Shown here piece by piece: positions 2,756 through 32,285 of a stretch of 32,285 nt of DNA (position 1 is its first letter; each line of letters starts with the position of its first letter). This stretch comes from Victivallales bacterium. Lineage in GTDB: Bacteria > Verrucomicrobiota > Lentisphaeria > Oligosphaerales > Oligosphaeraceae. The translations under genes and the position numbers were made by a program. The notes beneath the pieces were generated by a model, which worked only from the letters and a program-made list of their open reading frames with translations, ran no database searches and was not told where the DNA came from. The stretch covers positions 1 through 32,285 of the forward strand of contig JAFTAC010000355.1 of NCBI GenBank assembly GCA_017458805.1, written 5' to 3'.

Positions 2756-2898
2756 AACCACAGATTACACAGATTACACAGATGTTTTCAGCCGCATGCG
2801 CGGCTGAAAACGGGTTATTTATGGGGTACGACAAAATGAACTGCGAAGTGCCGCAAATGCGGCACTTCGCATCTGTGTAATCTGTGTAATCTGTGGTT
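2756..2898. repeat. 143-bp composite inverted-repeat element with two internal hairpins
   Basis: There is a perfect 29-bp IR (2756-2784 / 2870-2898). Its arms are 2.9 copies of the 9-mer cacagatta. Inside are an 11-bp stem hairpin (2785-2795 / 2800-2810) and a 12-bp stem hairpin (2843-2854 / 2859-2870). Confidence 0.9.
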
Positions 2899-6824: not shown

Positions 6825-7100
6825 AGCAGGCTGTGTGCGAATAAACCAAACGTAACTAATCAGCAGGGATTACATAGCACCGAAGAGCGACAAGGCGCAG
6901 AATACCAAGTGGTTTAAACTTTCCTTCGGTGGTTACACTTGCATTTTCGACGACGTGACTGTCGTCGTTACTCTCTCGTTTATTGTATAAATGAGGAGAG
7001 GACGTCTTTTTCTTCCTTGCATAATGGTATTTTTGACATTTTACGTTAAATTATATTACTTAGGTATTTGTTTTCGTTTGGGGCTTCACCCCAAGAAAGC

Positions 7101-7217
7101 CTAGAAGCTCTAGATGCTCTAGAAGCTCTAGAAGCTCTAGAAGCTCTAGAAGCTCTAGAAGCTCTAGAATCTCTAGAATCTCTAGAAGCTCTAGAACCTC
7201 TAGAAATGCTAGAACAG
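7101..7217. repeat. 9-bp tandem repeat (ctagaagct) x13
   Basis: I parsed 13 head-to-tail units by hand, of which 5 consecutive units are perfect (7119-7163) and the edges are degenerate. The array ends 11-29 nt before the lysS start candidates. Confidence 0.95.
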
Positions 7218-24894: not shown

Positions 24895-27429
24895 CTACAG
24901 CTCCATCAGGAATGGATTGAGGCTGATCATGTTGACACCGAGGGCCTCGCCTGTGAGGGCTTTGGCGTTGCTGAGGGTGAGGGTTGCCTCGGAGGCGTTG
25001 GCGATGAAGACGATGTGGTGCAGGTTGATGGGGGCGAAGCTGGCCTGGGGCTTCGAGCCGTCGCGCCTGTTGTTGACGTAGTGCCACGTGAGGTCGGGGC
25101 GGATGGTCACGCCGTCGATGGTTGCCTCGATGCCTAGGGCGCGCGATTTGACGGGGTTGACCCCGAGGGCAGCGGTGTCAAATACGGCGAACTGCAGGCA
25201 GTAGGCTTTGCCTGGTACCAACCCCTTGATGACCTGCGAGAGGGTGGTTGTCTCGTCAGCCTTCTTGGTCATAACGGCGTAGGTGTCGCCTGTGCCGTCA
25301 AGGCAGGACCAGCGGGCCTCGCTGGCGTTTGAGAAGCCAAGTGTGGCGGTGGTGGAGACGTTGCCGACGGCTTTCCATCCATCGAGGCTGCCTCGGAAGT
25401 CACCGTTCTGCAAATGGTTCGGGATGTAAGAGTAGCCGTACTGGTCGGAGAGCATGTCGCGCCTGCCTTCAATGCAGTAGTGCCTAAGGAGCAGCATGGA
25501 CCAGCGGTGCAGTTCGTGGTCGCCGTAGTAGCTGCCCCAGTAGCCTGTGCATGCGATGTTCTTGAGTTCGGGATGGTTGGCGATGAGGTTCAACTGCATG
25601 TCCAGGAAGTACTTGTAATCGACCTCGGGGTGATGGATGACGCTGATGAGCGGCACTTGGTTGAAGTTGCCGAGGATGACTCCAAGGTGCTCCTCGATGT
25701 GCGGGAAGTGCTTCTTGTACATCCGCACGGTGTCAATGATGAAGTTCTCCGTATGTTTGCGCGCAGAGGCCTCGTCAGGCATCGTCGGGCTATAGAGTTC
25801 GGAGAGGATTTTGCCGCGACCGCGCGTGACGTTGACGCATGCGGAGATGACATCGTTGTCAAGCCCTGCAGCGGTGGGTTTTCCCACGAACCAGGAGTAG
25901 AGGTCGCGTCCTTCGGGGAAGTTGTATTGGCGCAGTCCTGCAATGAATCGCAGAAGGGCGTCGTGCTGTCCGAAGAACTGCTCGTCGCATGTCACACCGC
26001 AGTACTGTGGGGCGTAAAGCCCCTTGGCACCGTTTAGGACTTCCATAAAACGTTCTGTGCTAACCATGGGTTTTGTTCCAACGGAACCCATCCAGCGCTG
26101 CCCGTTTTTGCGGATGTAGGCCACCTGCTCATCGGTCAGGATACCTCCATTGAAGGTGGTGACGGCGGGATGGAGGTATTTCTTCTGGAACTCCCAGTCG
26201 TAGGGGGGATTCGTAGGCACGAAGCTGTTGTTGCCAGGGCAGTAGTCGAAGACTTCCGCGATGGTGCGGACGATGATTCGCCCGCCTTTTTCGGCACCCT
26301 TGACTGTGATGGTGTGGTGTCCCATGGGAACGAGCCTGAAGGCCTCCAGGCGGGGTGTTTGGGTGTCGATGACGGCATTGTCTGCATCAAGCGAAATGTG
26401 CAGGTTTAGGTTGGCGGAGGCGTTCTCTGCGGCGATGAATAGCCAGCCGTCGCGGACGGTGTCGAAGCGGAAGGACTGCGGTGCGTTTGTCGCCTTGAGG
26501 TCGCTGTTGACGACTTCGGAGACCAGGTTGTTCAGCACCTTATGCCCTTTGTCGGAGACGTTTGGAAACTCCATTATCGTGTAGTGGAAGATTGGATTCA
26601 GCAGGGCTTTGCCTGTTTCCTTGCGGATGACGGCCACCTCCAGTTTGCCGCCCTTTGCGCCCGCTGGAAGCTTGACGGTGTTGACGTTCTTCACAAGATT
26701 CTGGACAACAGGCTGTTCTGCGCCCTCTGCTTTGACGACAAGGCTGTAGTCGTTGTAGTTGTCTGTGGGGAGGCGTCCGAAGAAGTTGAATGAGATGGTG
26801 GGATTGTCGGCTGGGATTCTGTCAAGCAAGGGTTCCCATGGGACGATGCGCAGGGCACGGTCATCGGAGTCCGAAGGTTCCGTGTATTTGAGGGCACCCT
26901 CGCTGATGGCCTCCAGGCGGAGGTCGGCCACACTGAGTTCGCCCGTGAAGTTGACGGTGAAGACGGCGATGAAGTACTTGCCGTCCTTGGCGGGCATGGC
27001 GGTGACCTCCTCCTGGAAGAGCGTCCAGTCGCAGTTGGCGGGGAGTTTTTTGATGCCTGCGTCCTGAAGCCAGCCAACATTGGCGATGATGATGCCAGCC
27101 TTGCCGTACTTCAGGTCTTTGGTGCGGACGCGTGCGGAGATTCGATAGGTCTCGCCCTCCTTCAGGTTTAGCCCGAACTGGCGGATGGTGAAGCTGCGCC
27201 TGGAGGCGGAGTTGTTGGTGTAGGTGATGGCGGGCAGACCTTCTGGCCCTGCGTTGTTGCTTGCCTTGAGGATGCCAGCCGAGTCCGTGCCTGTAATCCA
27301 GCACATCGGTATGGTGCTCTGGTTCAGCTCAAAACGGCCATTCTGCACGATGTTGTCACCAGGCCTGACCTCCGCCAGCGAAAGAAGGGACGCAAACAAC
27401 AACGAGATGGAGAAGAAAAGCTTTTTCAT
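24895..27429 (-). CDS. large secreted protein with CBM-like (galactose-binding-like) N- and C-terminal modules
   Basis: It has a signal peptide (MKKLFFSISLLFASLLSLA). The N-terminus reads NGRFEL...W...GETYRISARV and the C-terminus reads NGDFRGSLDGW...GKAYCLQFAV, both typical of CBM4/9-like modules. The central catalytic region is not identified. Confidence 0.7.
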   Translation of the reverse strand: MKKLFFSISLLFASLLSLAEVRPGDNIVQNGRFELNQSTIPMCWITGTDSAGILKASNNAGPEGLPAITYTNNSASRRSFTIRQFGLNLKEGETYRISARVRTKDLKYGKAGIIIANVGWLQDAGIKKLPANCDWTLFQEEVTAMPAKDGKYFIAVFTVNFTGELSVADLRLEAISEGALKYTEPSDSDDRALRIVPWEPLLDRIPADNPTISFNFFGRLPTDNYNDYSLVVKAEGAEQPVVQNLVKNVNTVKLPAGAKGGKLEVAVIRKETGKALLNPIFHYTIMEFPNVSDKGHKVLNNLVSEVVNSDLKATNAPQSFRFDTVRDGWLFIAAENASANLNLHISLDADNAVIDTQTPRLEAFRLVPMGHHTITVKGAEKGGRIIVRTIAEVFDYCPGNNSFVPTNPPYDWEFQKKYLHPAVTTFNGGILTDEQVAYIRKNGQRWMGSVGTKPMVSTERFMEVLNGAKGLYAPQYCGVTCDEQFFGQHDALLRFIAGLRQYNFPEGRDLYSWFVGKPTAAGLDNDVISACVNVTRGRGKILSELYSPTMPDEASARKHTENFIIDTVRMYKKHFPHIEEHLGVILGNFNQVPLISVIHHPEVDYKYFLDMQLNLIANHPELKNIACTGYWGSYYGDHELHRWSMLLLRHYCIEGRRDMLSDQYGYSYIPNHLQNGDFRGSLDGWKAVGNVSTTATLGFSNASEARWSCLDGTGDTYAVMTKKADETTTLSQVIKGLVPGKAYCLQFAVFDTAALGVNPVKSRALGIEATIDGVTIRPDLTWHYVNNRRDGSKPQASFAPINLHHIVFIANASEATLTLSNAKALTGEALGVNMISLNPFLMEL

Positions 27430-27430
27430 A

Positions 27431-27532
27431 AGTGGGAAGTGGCTAGTGGCTAGTGGTTAGTGGTTAGTGGTTAGTGGTTAGTATGGGGAGAATAGAAAGT
27501 TAGTGGTTTACCACTAACCACTAACCACTAGT
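27431..27532. repeat. heptamer (agtggtt) array plus inverted copies, able to form a perfect 22-bp stem
   Basis: About 7.5 units lie at 27431-27482. Positions 27450-27471 are exactly complementary to 27510-27531. The right arm contains the metallophosphoesterase stop codon (27528-27530). Confidence 0.93.
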
Positions 27533-28382
27533 GTATATTGAGGTGGACATATTCTCGCGGGCAGCAGAGGCGGTGGTGGAGGAAGCCGAAGCCTGATTCG
27601 CCCACGCCAGAGGCGGTGAGGCAGAGGGTGCCGTCGGTGCGTTGCTGCATGCCATGTACAAACTGGCGTCCGTATTGGGAGGAGGTGTAGATGGGGCCGA
27701 TGAGAGGCGGACATAGCTGTCCGCCGTGAGTGTGTCCGCAAAGCACCATATCGCCGATGAAGGTGTCGTCGGTGGCGTCTGCGGCGGCGTCGGGGTTGTG
27801 GCTGAAGGAGATGACAGGGCGCGGGTCATCGTGGAGGAGGGTCCAGTCTGAGGTGCCGAAACGCATGTCATCGACTCCGTAGAAGAGCAGGTTGCCTGCG
27901 TCGTGAAGCTGGTTGCAGAGCAGAGTGTAGCCGACTTGCGCGTATGCATTCGCCCAATACTCTGTCCCCAGCCAGAAGATGGGGGATTCACGGTTGCCGA
28001 GGATGGCCAGCCGTCCGCGTTTAGCCTTTAGGCGTGAGAGCCACTCAAGGGCACCTTCAACGGTGTCCATATAGACGCTTAGGTCGCCGCCGAAGACAAG
28101 CCAGTCGGCGTCCAAGGCGTTGATGCTATCGACGAGCTCCTCATAGAGCCCGTTCATCTTGCCGTTCCAATGCAAATCAGAGAGGAAGACAAGACTGCAT
28201 GGGCTGGCCATCTTTTTTCGTTGCGCCACTGCATCAATGTCGATGCGGTGAAACTGGGGCGAATCCTTGCAGATGTCCATCTTGATGTCGAAACGGGCAT
28301 CAGGGCGGGGCCAGGGCTGCCAGCTGTCGTTGTGGAGCCTGGCTCGGGTGTAATATGTTCTGTACAGCTTGAAGGAGGTCAT
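27528..28382 (-). CDS. metallophosphoesterase (calcineurin-like)
   Basis: Motifs are VFLSDLHWNG, VFGGDL, GNRE and CGHTHGGQ. ATG 28382 has an SD (aaaggagg); the track start 28433 would overlap the upstream gene. Confidence 0.85.
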   Translation of the reverse strand: MTSFKLYRTYYTRARLHNDSWQPWPRPDARFDIKMDICKDSPQFHRIDIDAVAQRKKMASPCSLVFLSDLHWNGKMNGLYEELVDSINALDADWLVFGGDLSVYMDTVEGALEWLSRLKAKRGRLAILGNRESPIFWLGTEYWANAYAQVGYTLLCNQLHDAGNLLFYGVDDMRFGTSDWTLLHDDPRPVISFSHNPDAAADATDDTFIGDMVLCGHTHGGQLCPPLIGPIYTSSQYGRQFVHGMQQRTDGTLCLTASGVGESGFGFLHHRLCCPREYVHLNIH

Positions 28383-28383
28383 G

Positions 28384-28917
28384 TTAGCCTCCTTTCTGAC
28401 CGAATCGGTGCCAGTAGCGGCGTACGCACTCAAAAAGAATCACGGCGCCGCAGTTGCCGACGTTGATGCTGTTCTTCATGCCGATGGCAGGCAGCTTGAC
28501 GAAGCCGTCGCACAGCTTCAGTGCCTCCTCCGAGATGCCCAGCGCTTCGTTTCCCATGACAAACGCGCAGGGGAAGCGCATATCTGCTTCCCAATACATG
28601 GCTGCGCCTTCCACTGTATCGACGCCATAGACGGTGAATCCGCGTTCTTTCATGGCAATGATGGCGTCGGTGGTCTTCTCGAAGTGCTCGCAGGGAACAG
28701 TTTCATCGCATCCACGCGCGGTCTTCTGAAGCTTGATGTGGGGTGGGGTCGCCGTATAGCCGCAGGTGACGATGCCCATGGCACGGGTCGCCTCCGCCGC
28801 ACGGAAGAGGTTGCCGACGTTATAGGCGCTGCGCAGGTTGTCCAGTATCAGCACGACTGGCATCCAGTCAGGCTGTTCAACGGTCTCCCTATCCCCTAGG
28901 CGTAGCGTGAAATCCAT
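28384..28917 (-). CDS. SpoU/TrmH-family RNA 2'-O-methyltransferase
   Basis: Motifs are LDNLRSAYNVGNLFRAAEA and NSINVGNCGAVILFE. ATG 28917 lies 1 nt after the helicase stop; the longer track ORF overlaps the helicase. Confidence 0.85.
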   Translation of the reverse strand: MDFTLRLGDRETVEQPDWMPVVLILDNLRSAYNVGNLFRAAEATRAMGIVTCGYTATPPHIKLQKTARGCDETVPCEHFEKTTDAIIAMKERGFTVYGVDTVEGAAMYWEADMRFPCAFVMGNEALGISEEALKLCDGFVKLPAIGMKNSINVGNCGAVILFECVRRYWHRFGQKGG

Positions 28918-28918
28918 C

Positions 28919-30568
28919 TTATTTCCTGGGGCCGCTGCGGCGGATGCGCGGACCGCTGGGCCGCCTGGAGAAGCCAGAACGCCCGTATGAGGAGTGGTTG
29001 TCGCCATAATCATGGCGATGGCTTCCAGTGGAACGCGCCGTGCCCAGGTTACGCAGGTTGGGGGGCATTTCAAGCATCTCGTCCGTAGGCTGCGTGATGG
29101 GGAGAGGGCGCTCGATGACCTTCTCGATTTCGGGGATGACGAAGCCGCAGTCTTCGTCGGCGAAGCTGATGGCGCGTCCCTTGTGGCCCGCGCGTGCAGT
29201 GCGCCCGACGCGGTGGACGTAATCCTCCGCCTCGTATGGCAGGTCGTAGTTGATGACGTGCGTCACGTCATCGACATGGATGCCGCGGCCCGCCACGTCT
29301 GTGGCGACGATGATTTTAACCTTGCCATCCTTGAAGTCGTCCAGGATGCGGAGGCGTTTCTTCTGGTCAACGTCGCCTGTTAGCATCTCGCATTGGACAC
29401 CGCAGCGCTGGAGCAGGGCGTGCAAGGATTCCACGTCCTTCTTGCGGTTGCGGAATATCAGGACGCGGTGGCAGTCTTCGTGCTTGAAGAGCCATAGCAT
29501 GATGGCCATCTTTTCGTTGGTCGTGGCTGCATAGACGGTCTCGTCGATGCCTTCGGCAAGGATGTGCTCTGGCTCGATTTCCACGACAACGGGATTGGGG
29601 CGCATCCAGCGGGAGGCGAGGGTCATGATTTCGCCCGTGAGGGTGGCACTGAAGAGCATGGTCTGACGCTTTTCCGACGGTGGGAGATAAGCCATGATGC
29701 GCTTGACATCGGGGATGAAGCCCATGTCCAGCATGCGGTCCGCCTCGTCTATGACGGCGATATCGACCTTGCCCAAATCGACGGCATGCTTGTGCAGGTA
29801 GTCAATCAGGCGGCCAGGGGTGGCGACAACCAGATCGACGCCGTGGGAGAGGGCGGAGAGTTGCTTGTCATAGTCCATGCCGCCATAGACGGCGACCGTG
29901 CTGAACTCGGGGCAGTAGGCGCTGATGTTCGCCGCATCGGTGGCGATCTGAATCGCCAGTTCGCGCGTGGGGGCGAGGATGATGGCCATGGGCTGCCATG
30001 GGTCGCGGTCCTCCTTGTTGGTGTTCAGAAAGCGCTGAAGCACCGTGATGAGGAAGGCAGCCGTTTTGCCAGTGCCCGTCTGTGCCTTGCCTGCCAAGTC
30101 TTTGCCTTGCAGGGAGTGCGGGAGTGCCTGCGCCTGAATGGGGGAGCAACGGCGGAAGCCCAGCTCCTCCAGCAAGGCGCGCAGGATTCGGTTGTCCAGC
30201 CCGAACTCCTGGAAGAAGTGCTCGTCATCCGCCTGGCGGACAGGTTCGGGGGGAACCCAGCCTTCCATGGACTTTGATGGCGCGTTGTTGCTGCTGCCTC
30301 TTGCGGGCTTTGGCTTCTTGGGATTAGCTGAGGTTTGCTTCTGGGTGCGCGTATCCTGCTTCTGTTGGGGAGGAACAGACCCTTGGGCTGTGCGACGTGA
30401 CGACGAGGCATCGTCGTTACCCCCTTTGCGTTTTGGGGAGTGGCGTTTCGCTCCCTCGTCTGGAAGATACACGGTGTTTTGCACCTGCGGCTGCTCTTCG
30501 GTGATTTCCTGCGTGCCGCCGAATATGTTCTTGAACCAATTAACTATTGATGAAAAAAAGCCAGACAA
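28919..30568 (-). CDS. DEAD-box ATP-dependent RNA helicase (RhlE-like) with low-complexity N- and C-terminal tails
   Basis: Motifs are AQTGTGKT, VIDEADRMLD, SAT and HRVGRTARAG. The start is TTG 30568 with an SD (aggaga). There is no in-frame ATG upstream, because an in-frame TAG lies at 30583-30581. Confidence 0.88.
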   Translation of the reverse strand: MSGFFSSIVNWFKNIFGGTQEITEEQPQVQNTVYLPDEGAKRHSPKRKGGNDDASSSRRTAQGSVPPQQKQDTRTQKQTSANPKKPKPARGSSNNAPSKSMEGWVPPEPVRQADDEHFFQEFGLDNRILRALLEELGFRRCSPIQAQALPHSLQGKDLAGKAQTGTGKTAAFLITVLQRFLNTNKEDRDPWQPMAIILAPTRELAIQIATDAANISAYCPEFSTVAVYGGMDYDKQLSALSHGVDLVVATPGRLIDYLHKHAVDLGKVDIAVIDEADRMLDMGFIPDVKRIMAYLPPSEKRQTMLFSATLTGEIMTLASRWMRPNPVVVEIEPEHILAEGIDETVYAATTNEKMAIMLWLFKHEDCHRVLIFRNRKKDVESLHALLQRCGVQCEMLTGDVDQKKRLRILDDFKDGKVKIIVATDVAGRGIHVDDVTHVINYDLPYEAEDYVHRVGRTARAGHKGRAISFADEDCGFVIPEIEKVIERPLPITQPTDEMLEMPPNLRNLGTARSTGSHRHDYGDNHSSYGRSGFSRRPSGPRIRRSGPRK

Positions 30569-32229: not shown

Positions 32230-32236
32230 TTTGCTT

Positions 32237-32285
32237 AGTGGTTAGTGGTTAGTGGTTAGTGGTTAGTGGTTAGTGGTTAGTGGTA
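32237..32285. repeat. heptamer (agtggtt) array, 7 units, truncated by the window end
   Basis: This is the same unit as at 27431-27482. It begins 7 nt upstream (in the gene sense) of the HtrA ATG at 32229. Confidence 0.93.

Follow-up and report, generated by a model that had tools for sequence, protein, structure and literature searches.

The window analysed here is the whole 32,285-nucleotide contig JAFTAC010000355.1 of the Victivallales bacterium assembly GCA_017458805.1. Its minus strand carries an ORF that matches Pfam Metallophos (27528..28433) and, downstream of it, an ORF for an 844-amino-acid protein with a CBM_4_9 domain and a signal peptide, whose homologues in Kiritimatiellia, Lentisphaeria and Verrucomicrobia metagenome-assembled genomes (MAGs) align with it from residue 1. 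The entire 97-nt gap between these two genes is filled by a pair of tandem heptamer arrays in inverted orientation, which provides both the TAG of the upstream gene and the complete leader of the 844-residue protein gene. The features of the locus, together with a second array of the same unit in the window, are as follows.

27427..27429, minus strand: ATG of the 844-amino-acid CBM_4_9 signal-peptide protein, ORF 24895..27429 (ORF map, Pfam)
27431..27482, minus strand: 3' arm, in the mRNA sense (UAACCAC)x4 and then degenerate UAGCCAC, UAGCCAC and UUCCCAC (TRF, inverted-repeat search)
27483..27509, minus strand: 27-nt spacer or loop, unique sequence plus one extra unit at 27499-27508 (sequence, inverted-repeat search)
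27510..27531, minus strand: 5' arm, in the mRNA sense (C)UAGUGGU x3, beginning with the TAG of the upstream metallophosphoesterase gene (TRF)
27528..27530, minus strand: stop codon (TAG) that the first repeat unit provides for the Metallophos gene (ORF map)
32235..32285, minus strand: second array of the same unit, in the mRNA sense (UAACCAC)x7, truncated by the contig end (TRF)

On the plus strand, positions 27431-27482 read AGTGGGA, AGTGGCT, AGTGGCT, four copies of AGTGGTT and a final AGT. TRF reports 27438-27482 as a period-7 repeat of 6.4 copies with 97% matches, and 27510-27530 as 3.0 perfect copies of ACCACTA. The segments 27450-27471 and 27510-27531, which have 38 nt between them, are 100% complementary over 22 nt, and the inverted-repeat search also finds register-shifted pairings of 18-22 nt between the arms. 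The RNA of the junction is predicted to fold into a perfect 22-bp stem with a minimum free energy of -38.55 kcal/mol (shuffle mean -15.6; z = -8.8). The extra unit in the spacer, GTTAGTGGTT, is able to pair locally with 27516-27525, and the resulting alternative hairpin of 10-11 bp is followed by a weak U-rich run. A single base (27430) separates the array from the ATG of the 844-residue ORF, and no GGAG-type Shine-Dalgarno (SD) sequence lies between array and ATG. The 14-mer AGTGGTTAGTGGTT, allowing one mismatch or none, has 12 matches in the window and 0 in 100 shuffles. An earlier note on this DNA had described an (AGTGGTT)n array 1 nt from the ATG, a perfect 22-bp stem that could form in several registers, an upstream TAG inside the inverted arm and a (UAACCAC)n leader lacking a GGAG-type SD; all of this description is borne out by the sequence, TRF and the inverted-repeat search.

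The locus in other assemblies

One further assembly spans the locus; it comes from a near-identical strain with 2 SNPs in 7.3 kb, located at 27492, in the 27-nt hairpin loop, and at 25898. In both arms its unit counts match those of the window, which at a distance of only 2 SNPs in 7.3 kb says little about variability, and the equal structure indicates that the hairpin is not an assembly artefact. The 844-amino-acid, C519, fabG and lolE proteins have no record in the other assemblies, and the contigs of those assemblies that carry the glycosyltransferase and HtrA genes end inside arrays.

Between the end of the second array of the window (32235-32285) and the ATG (32229) of an HtrA-like protease gene there are 5 nt. 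Upstream of this gene two other assemblies (L052 and L053, 1-128) have an array of at least 17 units (120 nt), whose irregular units show an additional CTAA or lack an A; all assemblies break inside it.

A genome-wide family of heptamer arrays

The MAG comprises 709 contigs and 4.05 Mb at 56% GC and is 85% complete. Its genes were mapped crudely as greedy longest ORFs, and about 90% of the genome is coding on that map. A census of the heptamer across this genome with the positions of its arrays, a check proposed in the earlier note, was the decisive test. The 21-mer (AGTGGTT)3 has 406 matches (0 for a control pattern), and there are 133 arrays of the same unit, with 2-26 units each, all but four of which (129/133) are intergenic on the crude gene map. 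Thirty-three of the 133 lie at contig ends, which makes the family a main cause of the fragmentation of this MAG. Altogether TRF finds 190 period-7 arrays in the genome, none of them composed of TAACTGA; the main units, TTAGTGG (100 arrays), TTAGCAA, TTAGAAA, CTAGTGG and TTAGTGA, all have a TTAG/CTAA core, so that every unit holds a stop codon on both strands (TAG and TAA).

About half of the arrays take part in 32 inverted pairs, and most of these pairs, like that of the locus, occupy the full gap between their two genes. Among the 25 pairs that could be classified, 20 lie between genes on the same strand, 3 between convergent genes and 2 between divergent genes.

An array of a variant unit, TATCCAC, with about 30 units, is present in the MAG itself (here G000; C464:2884-3104). 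Read in tandem this unit gives CTATCCACT, which we take to resemble the DnaA-box consensus TTATCCACA; to that presumed consensus the CTAACCACT of the main unit has 6/9 matches.

Orientation of the arrays

The arrays obey a polarity rule, in that the G/T-rich strand points 5' to 3' away from the ORF that the array abuts. For arrays with both flanks present, the TTAGTGG strand has an ORF within 12 nt of its 5' end in 54/69 cases and within 12 nt of its 3' end in 1/69. The inverted pairs are arranged with the G-rich arm first in 32 cases and the opposite way in none, so the layout in DNA is 5'-(AGTGGTT)n-spacer-(AACCACT)m-3' on either strand and that in RNA is stop-(UAGUGGU)n-spacer-(UAACCAC)m-AUG. 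Viewed from the genes, 32 of 50 start-side (UAACCAC)n arrays end within 10 nt of the start codon (opposite orientation, 0/34), and 48 of 66 stop-side (UAGUGGU)n arrays include the stop codon or lie within 10 nt of it (opposite orientation, 1/48). Unpaired arrays follow the rule separately at starts (17:0) and at stops (25:1).

The rule extends beyond this MAG. The genome G015 of genus g13, with 29 arrays, gives 11:1 for abutment and 2:0 for pairs, and 80 metagenome contigs (GC 30-68%) with 108 arrays, 107 of them outside ORFs, give 59:8 and 9:0, respectively. The sister families TTAGCAA and TTAGAAA follow it more loosely (abutment 15:3, pairs 11-12:0). With the polarity rule holding across the family, the locus studied here is a textbook member, stop-(UAGUGGU)3-27 nt-(UAACCAC)n-AUG. 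Selection acting on RNA may explain the orientation on the start side but not that on the stop side, since nucleotide composition after stop codons shows no bias genome-wide. A single rule acting at the level of DNA is more economical than two separate rules acting at the level of RNA.

Adjoining genes and their leaders

Arrays precede and follow genes of all classes, among them trpB-, ilvB-, pheT-, priA-, lolE- and aconitase-like genes. A forward array lies within 30 nt of the start codon of 45 genes, and of these 43 begin with ATG. By a crude measure 15.6% of the array-preceded genes encode signal peptides, compared with 14.5% genome-wide. An association with secreted proteins was rejected on these frequencies and on the housekeeping character of the adjoining genes; at this locus it is a coincidence.

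SD-like motifs precede 16% of the array-preceded genes and 38% of genes genome-wide. In 38 genes the forward array terminates within 12 nt of the start, and only 2/38 have an alternative SD plus start codon downstream, so that the array is itself the ribosome-binding region in about 30 genes. Start codons were taken from the longest ORFs, a procedure that placed at least one start, that of fabG, 12 nt (four codons) too far upstream; fabG retains an SD. The forward arm contains no G and 43% A, which agrees with the A-rich, G-poor leaders of the genome as a whole (A 0.39, G 0.20).

Turnover between species

The sites are mostly not common to related species. No arrays are present at the orthologous junctions of the congeneric G002, whose proteins are 74-97% identical, or at those of G015, and conversely 0/8 of the array-adjacent genes of G015 have an array at the orthologous end in G000. 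A site may also endure and be altered, as is seen upstream of fabG, where both congeners have heptamers: in G002 two units follow the orthologous stop codon and precede a unique spacer of 165 nt in which a GAGGAGG SD lies, and in G000 there are 3.4 units plus an inverted arm, all inside a spacer of 71 nt. Only 3/401 genomes of the phylum contain (TTAGTGG)4. At least 120 metagenome contigs (GC 30-68%), whose habitats differ widely, contain the same tetramer of units, and when set against the 3/401 genomes of the phylum this distribution indicates that the same unit recurs in unrelated lineages.

PF05635 genes between heptamer arms

Genes of the family PF05635 (23S rRNA intervening-sequence protein, a small four-helix-bundle, Avd-like protein) are present in 34/41 relatives. 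Significant inverted arms composed of tandem 7- or 8-mers flank 8 of 12 PF05635 loci in these relatives, and in all 8 armed loci the first arm is the G-rich one. Within the same bacterial family the arm units are of the NTAGTGG type in G006 and G011 and TTAGGGR in G002. Two metagenome contigs (L119 and L144) have the arrangement (TTAGTGR)n-IVP gene-(CTAAYCA)m, with arms that abut the flanking ORFs. The PF05635 cassette of G002 is located between the stop codon of a gene and the ATG of lolE, and the orthologous lolE of G000 is preceded, at a contig start, by ...CCCCTAATCC(AACCACT)6, which ends 5 nt from its ATG.

The PF05635 ORF on one G002 contig (L074, G002:C9, 1401-2124) extends past the conserved core into the C-strand heptamer arm, giving a product of 177 amino acids with a proline-rich tail encoded by the repeats.

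HMM and tblastn searches of the MAG yielded no PF05635 gene, two marginal matches being rejected as DnaG and non-coding DNA, and none was found in the array-rich G015. Both assemblies are broken at arrays and have no contigs below 1.5 kb; a gene of 400 nt flanked by long arms would thus be missing from them. Wherever both are visible the arrays are far more numerous than the IVP genes, and the link may therefore be one of shared architecture only. Shared ancestry of the arrays and the PF05635 cassettes is probable but not proven.

The locus itself has the long terminal-inverted-repeat stem of an intervening sequence (IVS), here a perfect 22 bp, and its 27-nt loop contains no ORF; ORF-less IVSs exist, so the missing ORF excludes only the ORF-bearing form. 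The element lies between two protein-coding genes and not at helix 25 or 45 of 23S rRNA.

Relation to known repeats

Dispersed repeats of heptamers became known in 1990 with STRR and are the most common long microsatellites in bacteria; they reportedly belong to the class that Mrazek et al. in 2007 called 'long SSR'. We know of no explanation for their origin, polarity or function, nor, to our knowledge, have heptamer repeats of this kind been described in the PVC phylum. What is new in the MAG family is thus a further example, in PVC, of an already known kind of dispersed heptamer repeat, and the many long arrays, intergenic bias and ORF-anchored polarity of the long-SSR/STRR-like class are all found in it. 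REP/BIME elements are dispersed, transcribed intergenic palindromes that often lie inside operons and can stabilise upstream mRNA. They resemble the MAG family as dispersed intergenic palindromes, but they differ in lacking a tandem microsatellite structure and a 7-nt register and in being conserved in sequence, whereas the arms of the MAG family are resizable. Because the same armed design brackets PF05635 genes, the closest described relatives of the family are IVS-type elements, STRR, TAACTGA and GGGAATC.

The TAACTGA direct repeats, described in marine Beggiatoaceae, Cyanobacteria and Bacteroidetes, are separated by about 1 nt from the start codons that follow them, and these have no ribosome-binding site (MacGregor 2015, PMC4679880). 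They share with the MAG family a heptamer that starts with TAAC, a 'forward' orientation a few nt from starts without a ribosome-binding site, downstream genes of all classes including essential ones, a patchy phylogenetic distribution and, with about 170 sets per genome, an almost wholly intergenic location. They differ in that the MAG unit is TAACCAC, its arrays reach about 26 units (2-6 for TAACTGA), it forms 32 inverted pairs (1 for TAACTGA), its arrays abut stops as often as starts, and its host belongs to the PVC phylum.

The GGGAATC repeats of Xanthomonas and GGGGAYT repeats of Nostoc lie nearer to their 5' neighbouring ORF whatever the orientation of that ORF (Rehm et al. 2015, PMC4692102). 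This polarity, with the 5' end of the G-rich strand next to the ORF, is common to them and the MAG family, and they, the cyanobacterial STRR and the long SSRs are likewise dispersed intergenic heptamer arrays of variable length with inverted copies. GGGAATC, GGGGAYT and STRR repeats also resemble the MAG arrays in having no tie to surface genes or mobile elements. In contrast to GGGAATC and GGGGAYT, the MAG unit has no G-tracts, so that no G-quadruplex is possible, its arrays show no preference for four units, and every unit has a stop codon on both strands.

The IVS of Coxiella burnetii has an S23p ORF and a 28-bp inverted-repeat stem that is cut by RNase III, with tandem heptamers of strain-variable number at its 5' cleavage site (Warrier et al. 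2016, PMC4990558). Both the 23S rRNA IVS and the element at the locus are stem-loops with terminal inverted repeats, the Coxiella arm that adjoins the ORF contains tandem heptamers, and the PF05635 genes of the relatives and metagenomes lie between heptamer arms of the same polarity. The differences are that the locus lies between protein-coding genes and has a 27-nt loop without an ORF, and that RNase III cleavage, known for Coxiella, is at this locus only predicted. In Haemophilus influenzae the 5'-UTR of hmw1A contains an (ATCTTTC)n hairpin that serves as a substrate for RNase III (Rapun-Araiz et al. 2025, PMC12721329), and there too a heptamer array in a 5' leader forms a long hairpin with a complementary arm, although transcription across the locus studied here is putative. 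The hmw1A repeat is, however, part of a contingency system confined to adhesin genes for which phase variation has been demonstrated, whereas the MAG family is found genome-wide at housekeeping genes and its second arm is itself a heptamer array.

Interpretation of the locus

The locus is best explained as an ORF-less ('solo') IVS-like copy of a dispersed family of heptamer-armed hairpins and not as the device of one gene, a reading to which we give a probability of about 0.7. Such arrays would arise and change in size by a process at the level of DNA, with slippage a likely contributor, and would persist where they are harmless to genes. Three candidate origins were considered for the family and rejected. 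A MITE with a conserved core does not fit because the spacers of the 32 pairs have nothing in common except additional heptamers, and directional growth does not because unit degeneracy shows no gradient along the arrays (0.62 vs 0.55, p = 0.24). An origin by reverse transcriptase in the manner of telomerase was set aside since PF00078 does not co-occur with the arrays: G002 has arrays and no reverse transcriptase, and many array-less relatives have reverse transcriptases.

The most plausible effect of the element on RNA is that of an intercistronic processing or stability hairpin. No sigma-70-like promoter is found in 27300-27700, and the metallophosphoesterase and 844-residue protein genes are presumably co-transcribed. 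If they are, RNase III might cut or bind the 22-bp duplex, or the duplex might act as a stabilising hairpin; the genome encodes an rnc (RNase III) homologue, and by analogy with the systems above the element, if transcribed, is a likely substrate of this enzyme. After cleavage the upstream message would carry the G-rich arm at its 3' end, and the downstream gene would have an unstructured, SD-independent leader in the form of the G-free (UAACCAC)n. The earlier note had proposed an intercistronic stability or processing hairpin here, and the structural part of that proposal agrees with the 22-bp fold (z = -8.8); a device specific to this gene does not agree with a locus that is 1 of 133 arrays. 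A search for known RNA families returned only sub-threshold chance matches, and the 3' end of 16S rRNA, with which the heptamer could be compared for pairing, is absent from the MAG.

The same leader could instead belong to a dedicated post-transcriptional or translational-coupling module, a genome-wide regulon in which (UAACCAC)n would bind a factor (S1, a Csp- or CsrA-like protein, the IVP pentamer) or serve as a ribosome standby site, and the hairpin would make initiation at the AUG depend on termination at the upstream TAG. The upstream stop and downstream start do lie at the base of one stem, the 38 genes with an array within 12 nt of the start have no room for an SD (SD-like motifs 16% vs 38%), the forward arm is A/C-rich and free of G, in keeping with the A-rich, G-poor leaders genome-wide, and the same idea has been put forward for TAACTGA repeats (PMC4679880). 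We nevertheless regard such a module as unlikely, because its sites are not conserved across species or genera, the genes involved have no common function, there is no known binding factor for (UAACCAC)n, and the orientation rule holds equally well for unpaired arrays and at the stops of convergent genes, with no compositional bias after stops genome-wide. A slipped-strand (phase-variable) contingency tract was also raised in the earlier note. In such a tract, phase-variable or rheostat-like, a change of unit number would act on the hairpin or leader and thereby adjust expression of the 844-residue protein, as at hmw1A. In favour of it, the 5' leader of this signal-peptide protein gene consists of a heptamer repeat that pairs with a complementary arm, the RNase III-cut (ATCTTTC)n hairpin in the hmw1A 5'-UTR is required for phase variation (PMC12721329), heptamer number varies among Coxiella strains (PMC4990558) and the length of the fabG-site array differs between species. 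Yet there are only four perfect units at the locus and more than 130 loci in the genome, mostly at housekeeping genes instead of being confined to surface, virulence or restriction-modification genes, and with no enrichment of signal peptides, and both published surveys of dispersed heptamers were likewise negative (PMC4692102, PMC4679880); the second assembly has equal unit counts, a point of little weight for a strain only 2 SNPs in 7.3 kb away. With the wrong gene classes and so few perfect units this proposal finds no support, and we consider it very improbable.

A role as transcription terminator or insulator, with the two genes transcribed separately, is very unlikely. One terminator-like site does occur on the minus strand (27526 to 27498), where an 11-bp stem is followed by UUCUAUUCUC, and three of the inverted pairs lie between convergent genes; but the 22-bp stem has no U-run, the local stem, with only 4 G-C pairs, precedes a weak U-run, the 70 nt from it to the ATG contain no promoter-like site, and 20/25 classifiable pairs separate genes on the same strand. 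The strict, ORF-anchored G-arm-first polarity shared by many different units and the bracketing of PF05635 genes also raise the possibility of mobility. The heptamer arrays might be the arms of a cassette, mobile or self-propagating, with a pentameric IVP/Avd-like four-helix-bundle protein at its centre, the solo hairpins then being non-autonomous derivatives that are placed or maintained by a directional DNA-end process. We hold this as a speculative proposal of low probability; if true, it would account for the predominance of 7-nt repeats among the long SSRs of bacteria.

As a solo copy of a dispersed hairpin family the locus belongs to an unusually clean case, with near-absolute polarity, pairs that replace whole intercistronic spacers and arrays that replace SDs before dozens of housekeeping genes. 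The family gives independent support to a link of heptamer arrays with RNase III-processed IVS-type and PF05635 cassettes, and with it a testable handle on an old question.

Other features of the window

Two 9-mer repeats of the window are also dispersed through the genome. The first, CACAGATTA (window 2756-2898), has 62 arrays and 22 inverted pairs genome-wide, and all of its pairs have the polarity 5'-(CACAGATTA)n...(TAATCTGTG)n-3'. Its arrays do not abut ORFs, from which their median distance is more than 100 nt, and this difference from the heptamers indicates that it is a separate composite repeat element. The second consists of CTAG-containing 9-mers (CTAGAGNTT; window 7097-7205) with about 60 arrays genome-wide, which show no orientation rule (9 vs 8) and about a quarter of which lie inside ORFs on the crude gene map.

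A DEAD-box helicase gene at 28384-30568 on the minus strand is apparently split into the overlapping frames 28919..30568 and 28384..29073. Another assembly has a run of N at the split point (window about 29103-29111), and the split may come from a frameshift or, the stretch being G+C-rich, from a problem of the assembly.
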